Assembly: GCA_038065915.1 (NCBI GenBank)
Contig: JBBTPZ010000002.1
Span: 18,714 to 69,625 of the forward strand
Source: Patescibacteria group bacterium
Lineage (GTDB): Bacteria > Patescibacteriota > Minisyncoccia > Phycocordibacterales > 21-14-all-36-13
Length of the DNA stretch: 50,912 nucleotides
Direction: 5' to 3'
Shown: in pieces, positions 27,515-48,880 of the stretch
How positions within the stretch are numbered: position 1 is the stretch's first letter
How the letters are laid out: each line of letters begins with the position of its first letter
The notes under the pieces: model-generated
What the model was told of the DNA's origin: nothing
Seen by the model: only the letters and a program-made list of their open reading frames with translations
Databases searched by the model: none
Made by a program: the position numbers and the translations under genes

Positions 27515-29385
27515 TTAGTTTCCGCGTCGTGTATCGTTCCATCATCTTCTTTTTTTCCTTCTTCTGGCTTTGTTTGTGTTTGCGCATTTTTTTGAATTTC
27601 TTCTCCTATTTTAGACATCTCGGAAGATAGTTCTTCTGTTGCCTTTTTAATCTCATCCACTTCATTCCTATCTTTTATTTTTTTAGCATTATCAATTTTT
27701 TCCTGTAAGTTTTTCTTTAAATCATCTGAAATTTTATCAGAATTTTCAGACAATGACCTTTCTGCGGTATAAACAACTTGGTCTAAAAAATTTCTTGCAT
27801 CCATTAATTCTTTTTTCTTTTTGTCTTCTTCTTCGTGTAATTCAGCATCTTTTTGCATCTTTTTTATATCATCTTCAGACAATCCGGATGTTGCTTCTAT
27901 TTTTATTGATTGTTCTTTTCCTGTTGATTTATCTTTTGCTTTCACATTGAGAATTCCGTTTGCATCTATATCAAAAGTAACCTCAATCTGCGGCATTCCT
28001 CTTCTTGAAGGAGGTATTCCATCCAAAACAAATCTGCCCAAACTTTTGTTGTCATTTGCCATAGGTCTTTCTCCTTGGACAACATGAATTTCAACGGATG
28101 TTTGATTGTCAGCAGCGGTAGAAAAAACTTGTGATTTTGATGTAGGTATTGTTGTATTTCTTTCAATTAATTTAGTTGCAACACTACCAAGAGTTTCTAT
28201 ACCAAAAGATAGTGGAATTACATCAAGAAGTAAAACATCTTTTACATCGCCTCTTAAAATTCCAGCTTGAACAGCAGCACCCAAAGCAACCACTTCATCC
28301 GGGTTAATTGACTTGTTTGGTTCTTTCCCGAATAAGTTCTTTACGGCTTTTTGAATCGCAGGCATCCTTGTCTGTCCGCCAACAAGAACTACTTCATCTA
28401 TATCAGAAATTTTAAATGGGGATGCTTCCATGGCTCTTTTTGTTATTTCAATTGATTTATCAATATATTCTTTAACTAAATCTTCAAGCTTTGCTCTTGA
28501 AAATTTCATTAATAAATGTTTGGGACCATCGGCATCTGATGTTATAAAAGGTATATTTATTTCTGTTTCGGTAGAACTGGACAATTCGTGTTTTGCTTTT
28601 TCAGCCGCTTCGTCCAATCTTTGTAGCGCCAAAGAATCTTTTGTAATATCTATGCCACTTTCTTTTTTAAATTCACTAGCAATCCATTTTATTATTTTTT
28701 GGTCTATATCTTTTCCGCCCATATGACTATCGCCGTCTGTTGATTTAACTTCAACCACATCATCTCCCACTTCAAGAACGGAAATGTCAAATGTTCCGCC
28801 ACCAAAATCAAAAACTACTATTTGTTCATTTTTCTTTTTATTAAAACCATAAGCCAGAGCGGCTGCGGTCGGTTCATTTATAATTCTTTTTACATCCAGC
28901 CCGGCTATTTTACCGGCATCTTTTGTCGCCTTTCTTTGTGAATCATTAAAATACGCGGGAACAGTAATAACGGCCTCTGTTATTTTTTCTCCTGTTTTTG
29001 CCTCCGCGTCGGTCTTTATTTTTTGAAGTATTATTGCAGAAATTTCTTCCGGTCTATATTTTTTATCCCCGAGTGTAATTAAAACTCCACTGTCATTTCC
29101 TTTGGTTATTTCGTAGGGGACAATTTCTTTATCTTTTTGGACTTCCTTATCGTCAAAACGATGTCCCATAAATCTTTTTATTCCAAAAACCGTATTTTTA
29201 GGGTTAGTAACCGCCTGTCTTTTGGCAGAAATTCCAACAATTCTTTCGCCAACTTTCGATAAAGCAACAATAGACGGTGTGGTTCTAGCCCCGTCAGAAT
29301 TTTCTAAAATTTTTGGTTCTCCGCCCTCAATAACGGCAAAAGCTGAATTTGTCGTTCCTAAATCAATTCCTAAAATTTTGCTCAT
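27511..29385 (-). CDS. dnaK: chaperone DnaK (Hsp70)
   Basis: [17 protein letters not shown] and [10 protein letters not shown] motifs; 624 aa. Confidence 0.98.
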
Positions 29386-45123: not shown

Positions 45124-45162
45124 ATCTGCGTTCATCTGCGCTTGTTATCTGCGTTTATCTGC
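45124..45162. repeat. ATCTGCG short direct repeats x4 (10-12 nt period)
   Basis: Contains the 17-mer ATCTGCGTTCATCTGCG, also found inside mnmA at 48386-48402. Confidence 0.85.
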
Positions 45163-45180
45163 AAATTTGCTGGAAGCAAA

Positions 45181-45810
45181 TTAACGGGGCATCCCAGAAG
45201 TAGTTTTAAATGTAGTAATTAAATCTTTCTTGATCACGGAATCTTTTATAGGCAAATCTTTTGTGTGGTCAAAAATTCTATCACCATCGTCTTTCAAAAG
45301 CTTCACATAATATGTTGAATCCCCAGAAGTACTTCGGAGCAAACTAATTTCTTGTTTTTCAAACGAACCCGCATCAAAAACTCCTGCACCAAGAATATTT
45401 CCCGGCTCACCGTTCACATCTTCGTAAATAGTAACCCAAACAGTTTCTTCTAAACTAAGTTTTGAAATAATTACACTATCACCGAATGGCTGGTTTTCAA
45501 CAACAATTGTATCTTTGCCAAAAGAAGTTTCTTCGTTAATATTTTTATTATTTAAAACATTTGTGTTTTCTGTAGTTTTTATTTCTTCAATTTTATTTTT
45601 TGATATAAAATTTTTTATTCCATCTCCAAAAATATAAGATGCTACAAATCCTATTACAAAAAATATTATTCCAACTGTGATTATTTTTCTCATTTCGTTA
45701 TTTCGGTTTTTATTTAAACCTTCAATACCACCATTTTGTATGTATTCTTTATTTGCTTCGTTTACACTAAAACTATCTTTTGTGTTGGACTTGTTCCTGC
45801 TGATATTCAT
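45181..45810 (-). CDS. hypothetical membrane-anchored protein (209 aa)
   Basis: One TM span IITVGIIFFVIGFVASYIF followed by a beta-rich C-terminal domain. Confidence 0.6.
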   Translation of the reverse strand: MNISRNKSNTKDSFSVNEANKEYIQNGGIEGLNKNRNNEMRKIITVGIIFFVIGFVASYIFGDGIKNFISKNKIEEIKTTENTNVLNNKNINEETSFGKDTIVVENQPFGDSVIISKLSLEETVWVTIYEDVNGEPGNILGAGVFDAGSFEKQEISLLRSTSGDSTYYVKLLKDDGDRIFDHTKDLPIKDSVIKKDLITTFKTTSGMPR

Positions 45811-47644: not shown

Positions 47645-47700
47645 TAGAATGTTTTACTTTGTAATTTTATATTGTCATTTTTCACTTTGAATTTTTCATT
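47645..47700. repeat. family D-related fragment (TTGTCATTTTTCACTTTGAATTTTTCATTTT)
   Basis: Contains the mnmA TGA stop. Confidence 0.6.
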
Positions 47701-48880
47701 TTAAATTTTTTATAACTCCTCCTCCTAAACATTCTTCTCCATCATACAAAACAACTGACTGACCGAGAGCAACTGCTTTCTGTTTTTCATCAAAAATTAT
47801 AAAAGTTTTTTCTTTTTTATACTGAACAAAACAACTTTGAAGTGGTTGACGATATCTTATTCTCCCTAAATATTTTTTACTTTCATTTGGTTTTTCCCCA
47901 GAAACCCAGTTTATATTTTGTATTTCTATTTTATTTGAATTATAAAGTGAAGATTCTTTTTCATCTCCTTCTCTTACAACAAGAGTATTATCATCTATAT
48001 TTTTTGAAATTATGTAATAAGGTTTTTGGTCCGGTTTCTTTTTAATAATTGTAAATCCGTGTCTTTGTCCTATTGTATAAAAGAACGCTCCTTCGTGATT
48101 CCCTATTATTTCTCCTTTTTCATTTAAAACATTCCCCTCTTTTTCTTTAACAAAATTTTTCAAAAATTCTTTCATTTGAATTTTCCCAATAAAACAAACA
48201 CCCTGGCTATCTTTCTTTTTAGCTGTCGCCAGATTATTTTCTTTAGCTATTTTTCTAACTTCACTTTTTTCTAAATCTCCAACCGGAAAAAGTGTATATT
48301 TCAATTGTTCTTGATTCAGTGTCCACAAAAAATATGATTGGTCTTTTTCTTTATCAACTCCCGCATACATTTTGTAAAACATATCATCTGCGTTCATCTG
48401 CGGTTTTTTATCTGCGTTAATCTGCGTCGTCTCTAGACGAGCGTAGTGTCCTGTCGCAATCGTGTCTGCTCCCATTTCTTTTGCTTTATCTAAAAACGCT
48501 CCAAATTTTATATTTTTATTACACATCACATCCGGATTTGGAGTTCTGCCTTTTTTATATTCTTCAATCATGCAATCGGCAACTTCTTTTTTATATTCTT
48601 TTTCAAAATCAAAAGTCAAAAAAGGTATGTTTAGTTGTGCGCAAATTTTCATTGCGTCATTTCTTTCTTTTTTCCAATCACACTCTAAAAAATCTGGATG
48701 CCAAACTTTTATAAAAACACCTGTTATGTCATATCCTTTTTCTTTCAACAGAAAAGCGGAAACGGATGAATCAACGCCACCCGATATTGCTACAAATATT
48801 TTTCTTGTCTCGAGCTTGCTTGCGGTGAGCTCGTCGAATCCGTCGAGAGATTTGTCTTTATTTAAAATCATGTTTGACAA
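47696..48880 (-). CDS. mnmA: tRNA 2-thiouridine(34) synthase
   Basis: AISGGVDSSV PP-loop, TGHYAR and KDQSYFL. Carries a repeat-derived insertion (see 48386-48427). Confidence 0.93.
   Translation of the reverse strand: MSNMILNKDKSLDGFDELTASKLETRKIFVAISGGVDSSVSAFLLKEKGYDITGVFIKVWHPDFLECDWKKERNDAMKICAQLNIPFLTFDFEKEYKKEVADCMIEEYKKGRTPNPDVMCNKNIKFGAFLDKAKEMGADTIATGHYARLETTQINADKKPQMNADDMFYKMYAGVDKEKDQSYFLWTLNQEQLKYTLFPVGDLEKSEVRKIAKENNLATAKKKDSQGVCFIGKIQMKEFLKNFVKEKEGNVLNEKGEIIGNHEGAFFYTIGQRHGFTIIKKKPDQKPYYIISKNIDDNTLVVREGDEKESSLYNSNKIEIQNINWVSGEKPNESKKYLGRIRYRQPLQSCFVQYKKEKTFIIFDEKQKAVALGQSVVLYDGEECLGGGVIKNLK
48386..48427. repeat. ATCTGCG short direct repeats x4, in frame inside mnmA
   Basis: Copies at 48386, 48396, 48410 and 48420 encode ..TQINADKKPQMNAD.. 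Confidence 0.85.

Follow-up and report, generated by a model that had tools for sequence, protein, structure and literature searches.

Why would the gene for an essential tRNA-modification enzyme carry a block of short direct repeats inside its coding sequence? The question is raised by mnmA, the gene for tRNA 2-thiouridylase, in a 50,912-nt stretch of contig JBBTPZ010000002.1 from a Patescibacteria group bacterium (hereafter the window, to which position numbers refer unless a contig is named). Four ATCTGCG heptamers lie within this gene, between the codons for its GHYAR and KDQSYFL motifs. We conclude, with a probability of roughly 0.78, that this block represents a solo arm, devoid of genes, from a selfish family of cassettes that encode a GxxExxY nuclease, that it was gained once, and that it is probably translated and tolerated rather than useful.

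An in-frame heptamer array in an intact mnmA gene

The source genome (G000) comprises 545 kb in 31 contigs with 32% G+C; three further genomes, G001, G002, and G003, belong to the same genus. The mnmA locus of G000 has the following features.

47696 to 48880, minus strand: coding sequence of mnmA (tRNA 2-thiouridylase), the host gene; an intact open reading frame (ORF) of 394 amino acids
48386 to 48426, plus strand: solo heptamer-array arm of the 41-nt class; four ATCTGCG units separated by TTC, GTTTTTT, and TTA
48427 to 48386, minus strand: 14 codons for TQINADKKPQMNAD; no other frame of the array is free of stops on the reverse strand

The heptamers occupy positions 48386-48392, 48396-48402, 48410-48416, and 48420-48426, with spacings of 10, 14, and 10, and are read as CGCAGAT on the sense strand of mnmA. 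The block has the layout by which we define an arm, about four direct repeats of 6-7 nt phased at ~10 bp. Tryptic peptides predicted to span the insert are LETTQINADK and KPQMNADDMFYK. The first-pass annotation, which was made from the sequence alone, had placed four ATCTGCG units encoding TQINADKKPQMNAD between the same two motifs of MnmA, and the coordinates, ORF, Pfam matches, and matches to solved structures all agree with that description.

The product of the gene has the SGGxDS PP-loop, the catalytic aspartate, the two cysteines, and the three-domain architecture of MnmA. Pfam matches were PF03054 (tRNA_Me_trans, the catalytic domain; E 4.7e-77) and PF20259 and PF20258 (the M and C domains), and the PDB matches were to MnmA structures (2hma, E 5e-95; 2der, E 6e-90). 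In an alignment of MnmA orthologues from 30 genomes of the order, PP-loop residues S33-S38, D117, C120, and C229 were invariant. An AlphaFold2 model built from this 30-sequence alignment had a mean predicted local distance difference test (pLDDT) score of 87 and a predicted template-modeling (pTM) score of 0.85, and Foldseek matched it with TM scores of 0.88-0.91 to 2hma, 2det, 2der, and 2deu, which are S. pneumoniae and E. coli MnmA structures, tRNA complexes included. In the model, strands 147-153 and 167-173 form a β-hairpin with residues 154-166 as coil at its tip, and pLDDT values were 67-74 for insert residues versus 95-98 for the flanks. On these results, mnmA appears to be functional, and the insert has the look of an excursion from the surface at the β-hairpin tip, where a surface loop had been anticipated.

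The array belongs to a dispersed, gene-associated repeat family

We searched for half-sites, defined as ATCTGCG-NNN-ATCTGCG with at most two mismatches. The source genome contained 102 half-sites at ~57 loci, compared to 0-2 in shuffled genomes, with the heptamers phased at ~10 bp. The dominant length classes were one of 41 nt (consensus ATCTGCGTTTATCTGCGGTTTTTTATCTGCGTTAATCTGCG, n = 16) and one of 38 nt whose linker is TCTA (n = 10). From the consensus of the 16 copies in the 41-nt class, the mnmA copy differs by one nucleotide (40/41 identical). Among 301 genomes of the order, ATCTGCG-type half-sites were abundant only in the source genus and a few scattered genomes; the four species of the genus had 97, 87, 40, and 14 half-sites per genome, and controls had about zero.

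Enrichment is also evident in the window, which contains eight heptamers versus 1.77 expected and four matches at up to three mismatches to the 17-mer ATCTGCGTTCATCTGCG versus 0.08 expected. As the first-pass annotation had pointed out, this 17-mer from mnmA recurs exactly in a second array (45124-45140), yet the recurrence establishes no private link between the two loci, as the genome has seven exact copies. The second array was considered as the donor of the mnmA copy and rejected, given these seven copies and given that the 41-mer nearest to the mnmA copy, with one mismatch, is on another contig (C4 12011). Its features are listed here.

45124 to 45163, plus strand: another arm of this kind, the second in the window; heptamers at 45124, 45134, 45147, and 45157 (the last being ATCTGCA), between convergent genes
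45164 to 45182, plus strand: outer hairpin of the second copy, AATTTGC-TGGAA-GCAAATT; folding free energy (dG) -8.5, perfect 8-bp stem

The hairpin of this second copy overlaps the stop codon of the ORF at 45181-45810 on the minus strand. A lone ATCTGCG at 27986-27992 is outside any array and fits chance.

The earlier proposal that a non-coding, intergenic repeat had invaded an essential coding sequence with the frame kept can be divided in two. A dispersed repeat is indeed present in frame in an intact mnmA gene, but the label of a non-coding intergenic repeat does not hold: the arm belongs to a nuclease cassette (see below), many other copies are coding or inside rRNA genes, and of the 19 full arms outside rRNA and the interiors of coding sequences, 14 are positioned with the hairpin side -31 to +20 bp from the 3' end of a gene. 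These 14 arms have the same sense orientation as the in-frame copies. Because most of the seemingly intergenic arms abut gene 3' ends and so many others are in coding or rRNA sequence, the repeat family is gene-associated rather than intergenic.

Composite inverted arrays occur in the 23S rRNA gene, in at least four places, and in the 16S rRNA gene (C20 12851-15279, C4 8846-10658, and C30 1684-2733); on C30, arrays flank a group I intron in the 3' part of the 23S gene. Where they match the Rfam models, the rRNA genes exceed them in length by ~280-640 nt. About 16 loci, including C3 35964 (tsaD) and C3 40582 (valS), carry another dispersed repeat, ACTTGGAAGCTSAGCTTCCAAGT, a perfect palindrome of 23 bp. 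It too is inserted in frame: TsaD and ValRS both contain it as LEAELPSK, and Tgt has a variant next to its heptamer arm.

A single gain of the insert within the genus

Solved MnmA structures align to the G000 protein with a 12-residue gap exactly over the insert, and the MnmA of G001, which is an 84% identical protein, lacks the insert and has a loop that is 36 nt shorter. The net effect of the insert on MnmA is thus +12 residues (range 12-14), close to the ~13 extra residues relative to E. coli MnmA that the first-pass annotation had estimated. By contrast with G001, the mnmA gene of G002, a genome assembled independently from another sample, has the same 42 nt as G000 with 41 of 42 identical. 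The mnmA gene of G003 has the same four CGCAGAT heptamers with a GC-rich hairpin in each spacer, giving a 45-residue insert that is still in frame. Most other genera of the order have a short loop with no insert, and loop length varies widely among the 30 orthologues. A homologous segment of equal length in repeat-free relatives would have refuted the first-pass reading, and none was found: their loops are either at least 12 residues shorter or contain unrelated inserts.

In a maximum-likelihood tree of MnmA with the loop masked, G001 was basal and the remaining genomes grouped as (G000,(G002,G003)) with 99/94 support. A single gain after the split of G001 explains the pattern of presence and absence on this topology. 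We propose that one arm was fixed in the loop between GHYAR and KDQSYFL in an ancestor shared by three of the four species sampled from the genus. The four species provide an allelic series at one site, with empty, compact, and hairpin-expanded alleles, in which gain, tolerance, and further colonization can be compared.

One rival explanation, which takes the segment for a loop native to the lineage or for an artefact of assembly and its likeness to the repeat for coincidence, draws on the natural length variation of this loop and on the unrelated inserts that fill it in other orthologues. We regard it as refuted by the near-identity of the mnmA copy to the consensus of its class, by the presence of the same insert in the independently assembled G002, and by half-site counts far above those of the shuffle controls.

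Hairpins nested between successive CGCAGAT units, with the frame kept, are present both in G003 mnmA (L015:1003-2226) and in G002 valS (L041). They comprise GC-rich hairpins (CACCCCGCC..GGCGGGG) and a 57-nt hairpin that is read as IHPVKSSEA..FNRASAD. Arrays in the rRNA genes of the source genome are split by a similar hairpin (ATCCCGCCTTGGCGGGAT).

In three MnmA orthologues from other genera (L016, L019, and L026), the same loop is filled by unrelated low-complexity inserts of the type IPNxNxQ..PN.K, and the motif LQIPNHKQVPNSKSKIQNQ in LeuRS of the source genome resembles them (leuS of G000 and G001). These inserts may represent another in-frame repeat family.

Other in-frame copies follow a frame rule

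A search for further in-frame copies, as the first-pass annotation had proposed, found ~16 arms wholly within long ORFs, in 11 genes. Besides MnmA, the hosts identified by Pfam are TsaD, ValRS, Tgt, PheS, LeuRS (with three arms), IleRS (with a degenerate arm), GatB, MiaA, and a RecG-type helicase; one further host ORF had no Pfam family assigned. On the reverse strand, the consensus is free of stop codons only in the QINADKKPQINAD frame, and every coding arm in the CGCAGAT sense reads [TS]Q[IM][ND]ADKK[PT]Q[IM][ND]AD. Arms of the 38-nt class in the opposite orientation read NLR[KE]SASNLR[SP]SA, and the other open frames would be hydrophobic and rich in cysteine. This pattern is as expected if selection retained only read-through that was not disruptive. 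Three circumstances probably allowed the arm in mnmA to survive: it is read in the only stop-free frame of its strand, it adds a whole number of codons (its length is divisible by three), and its site is the tip of a surface β-hairpin of variable length. Most likely the arm is expressed along with the gene at both the RNA and the protein level, in which case MnmA would acquire a hydrophilic extra loop that is tolerated and not useful.

Could the 42 nt be removed before the mature protein forms, whether through protein splicing, a minute intron, or translational bypass, leaving MnmA at wild-type length? On the sense strand, the array comes immediately after a hairpin, and the arrays in rRNA genes are plausibly excised like intervening sequences. 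We nevertheless consider removal exceedingly improbable. All coding copies are free of stop codons in the frame of the host, and removal at the RNA level would set no frame constraint, so the kept frame disfavors it. Moreover, the 14 residues of TQINADKKPQMNAD contain no intein blocks as judged by reading the sequence, 42 nt is too short for a self-splicing intron, and no group I or group II intron signature was reported for mnmA, the Rfam run having covered the rRNA loci only.

Nine of the ten identified host proteins in the source genome handle tRNA, which raises the idea that the charged insert improves MnmA, for example in binding tRNA or a partner, and has been co-opted and kept by selection at the protein level. 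Enzymes of tRNA or translation also predominate among the hosts in other genomes, and three species have retained the insert. However, the same peptide also occurs in RecG, in the GAPDH of another genome, and in a protein without known function; in G003, nested hairpins contribute 45 unrelated residues in place of most of the peptide, and the frame is still kept; G001 and most orthologues do without the insert; and model confidence in the loop is low. Co-option is therefore very unlikely in our view.

Across G000, G001, G106, and G300, the great majority of hosts act on tRNA or in translation, namely TsaD, Tgt, MiaA, ValRS, LeuRS, IleRS, PheS, PheT, GatB, EF-G, and MnmA, which is a host in two genera with the arm at a different site in each. 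Outside translation, the hosts are RecG and, as exceptions, GAPDH and a metallo-β-lactamase (MBL)-fold protein that is β-CASP-like. Hosts in the three genomes other than the source were named by eye, and the apparent preference for tRNA enzymes is an observation from these host lists.

Two individual sites were also noted. In an ORF without an assigned function (C25 12418-13074), the arm is accompanied by adjoining LeuRS codons (DERDYAF; compare leuS, C14 29360-29400), and it seems to have been duplicated from leuS along with its host flank. At the ValRS site, G003 (L040) has an array of the CGCGGAC type and G000 and G002 have arrays of the CGCAGAT type, which may reflect either parallel change of all four heptamers or refilling of the site by another subfamily.

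Arms of the same type flank a GxxExxY nuclease

The full form of the element is a cassette in which a hairpin and four CGCAGAT units precede an ORF for a GxxExxY nuclease of the PD-(D/E)XK type, and four ATCTGCG units and a hairpin follow it. In the source genome, the recG gene on contig C13 contains a complete, in-frame nuclease domain flanked by a CGCAGAT arm and an ATCTGCG arm. The embedded domain matches PF13366 (PDDEXK_3; E 3e-34) and TIGR04256 (GxxExxY; E 1e-34) and is the sole copy in the genome. The heptamer in mnmA is identical to that of the arms flanking this nuclease domain. As mnmA holds one arm and no nuclease cargo, its insert is a solo or degenerate member of the cassette family.

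Several observations tie arms to cassettes. First, the RecG cassette is shared with G002 and is absent from G001 and G003, where the flanks are 93-95% identical; these empty sites retain one heptamer on each side, as in CGCAAAAAATCTGCG of G001. Based upon the tree, its absence from G003 RecG is a secondary loss. Second, the GatB site in G002 contains a left arm, a truncated N-terminus of the nuclease, and a right arm, the same site in G000 contains the left arm only, and the site is empty in G001 and G003. Decay of a cassette can therefore leave a solo arm, and the arm in mnmA could have arrived either alone or as the residue of a decayed full cassette. Third, inverted arrays phased at ~10 bp flank 13 of 14 PF13366 genes in six genomes, and the array motif changes by lineage, being CGCAGAT, CGCGGAC, CACGGAT, TACGAAT, GCGAAT, or TACCAAT. 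Finally, a cassette occupies the same RecG site, between DEQHRFGV and MTATPIPRT, in two genomes of other families, for three families in total, and the Tgt site is occupied in two families. Within the genus, the nuclease is present in the two array-rich genomes and absent from the other two. These findings favor, short of proof, a cognate relationship between the nuclease and the arrays, with the arms being mobilized or maintained by the predicted nuclease.

A 2012 survey of the superfamily lists the function of the PF13366 family as unknown (PMC3424549). In the literature that we searched for GxxExxY, PDDEXK_3, PF13366, and TIGR04256, only passing mentions and statements of unknown function were present, and no description of the cassette was found.

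A hairpin at the outer junction includes native host codons

At its outer end, the mnmA array abuts a small hairpin.

48427 to 48440, plus strand: outer-junction hairpin TCGTCT-CT-AGACGA; dG -9.6 for the 32 nt after the array

In this hairpin, the arm at 48435-48440 coincides with native codons, those for Ala-Arg(-Leu) in GHYAR. On the array side, the arm (48427-48432, read as Thr-Thr codons) is extra sequence that is present in G000, G002, and G003 and missing from the empty G001 allele. Hairpins of at least 5 bp that start 0-1 nt past the last ATCTGCG were found in about half of the full arms, compared to a control rate of 7-10% on the other side of the array or in random segments of the genome. 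The hairpin sequences differ site by site. In coding copies, the array-distal arm is native host sequence with conserved codons (for MnmA, Ala-Arg of GHYAR; for RecG, Pro-His-Leu-Leu; for LeuRS, Val-Asn-Val), and the array-proximal arm is extra sequence missing from empty alleles. Where the host codons differ, as in the RecG of another family, the extra arm differs to match. In TsaD, it is the host residues that are altered, from EISKLAEE to YISALAEM, giving a 10-bp palindrome.

Two origins are consistent with these hairpins: either insertion copies a few flanking bases in inverted form, or the hairpin was selected afterwards. In the mechanism that we propose, host sequence would be built into the outer hairpin during insertion. 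Comparisons of filled and empty alleles of MnmA, GatB, MiaA, TsaD, ValRS, and RecG revealed no target-site duplication, a test weakened by the diverged flanks of the loops.

Evidence that weighs against a passive solo arm

Some of our results weigh against reading the mnmA block as a passive relic of a nuclease cassette. First, no inverted partner arm, PF13366 remnant, or target-site duplication was found at the mnmA site. Second, the roles given to the nuclease in binding or cutting the arrays and in mobilizing the arms are ones that we infer from sequence. Third, the correlation between the nuclease and the number of arrays in the genus, with 97 and 87 half-sites in nuclease-bearing genomes and 40 and 14 in nuclease-free ones, comes from four related genomes only. 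Fourth, the probable translation of the insert is deduced from its frame and length only. Finally, the 42 nt of the insert are more similar between G000 and G002 (41 identical) than is the remaining gene (85.5%), and 13 of 13 synonymous codons in the insert are unchanged versus 74%, a weak signal with P about 0.02. This extra conservation hints at constraint at the DNA level or at gene conversion, and the insert may not be a purely passive relic.

Conservation of this kind bears on the proposal that the array is kept for a DNA-level role, offering phased binding sites for the nuclease or for a nucleoid, partition, or regulatory protein, with read-through being incidental. The strict 10-bp phasing, which places the heptamers on one face of the helix, would suit such a role, as would the greater conservation of heptamers than of surrounding synonymous sites, the covariation of the motif with nuclease lineage, and an outer hairpin that is kept or rebuilt despite changes in host residues, as in TsaD. 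Nevertheless, the arrays are patchy and species-specific, having been gained, lost, or left to decay at orthologous sites within one genus; genomes of the same order mostly have none; arrays in rRNA and coding loops share no regulatory logic; and the synonymous-site signal is weak. We judge a DNA-level role to be unlikely and favor a tolerated solo arm.

There is about an even chance, in our estimation, that the mnmA block is the footprint of a class of selfish element for which we found no description, in which a GxxExxY cassette with heptamer-array ends inserts in frame in translation genes and in rRNA genes, is read through as added loops or domains in the manner of a non-splicing intein, spawns gene-less arms, and rebuilds host codons into a hairpin. 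If so, recognition or cleavage of its own phased arrays would be the first function assigned to the large PF13366/TIGR04256 family. The identity of the mnmA arm with the ends of the RecG cassette provides a concrete candidate substrate for this widespread nuclease family. For annotation, lineage-specific "insertions" in the proteins and rRNAs of Patescibacteria can be mobile repeats and not adaptations.

Comparison with known systems

The closest described analogue of the arm appears to be the Rickettsia palindromic elements (RPEs), short repeats that are found in frame in many housekeeping genes and are compatible with protein folds (PMC10969869). In both cases, multicopy in-frame inserts are dispersed among unrelated housekeeping genes of a reduced genome at surface positions and are read through, here presumably, as added stretches of peptide, and only non-disruptive frames survive. 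RPEs are palindromes of ~100-150 bp with no known cognate enzyme, whereas the arm combines a 38-41-bp array, made up of four direct heptamers at 10-bp phasing, with a hairpin specific to each site, occurs singly or in inverted pairs, and is accompanied by a nuclease in the full form. The sole palindromic part of the mnmA block is its 14-nt, site-specific hairpin, and no relatedness to RPEs was seen, RPE sequences not having been compared directly. An essential tRNA-modification enzyme of an ultra-small genome that carries probably translated selfish DNA would thus be a second example beside RPEs, and a mechanistically different one.

The family also resembles MITEs, the miniature transposable elements with inverted repeats, as gene-less derivatives outnumber the autonomous copy and inverted pairs of arms flank short or no cargo in TsaD and PheS. 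Unlike MITEs, the mnmA copy lacks terminal inverted repeats, as it comprises one arm only; no duplication of the target site was seen for it, and the outer junction of the arm carries an inverted copy of host sequence.

Homing endonucleases and inteins provide another parallel. Like them, the cassette places a small nuclease ORF at conserved sites in essential genes and rRNA, the same sites are filled in distant lineages (RecG and Tgt), and relatives have both empty and filled alleles. The cassette differs in having no splicing machinery and appears to stay in the protein, and its repeat-array ends and abundant gene-less arms are MITE-like; homing itself is only putative here, with indirect evidence in the sites shared by distant families and in the differing heptamer type at the ValRS site of G003.

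In the REP/REPIN-RAYT and Ssn-NTS systems, many short repeats accompany one or a few small, repeat-flanked genes for DNA enzymes, and the repeat covaries with the lineage of the enzyme. Those enzymes have HUH or GIY-YIG folds, and the repeat is a conserved palindrome. By contrast, the family described here pairs a PD-(D/E)XK enzyme with arrays of direct heptamers that are often inside coding sequence.

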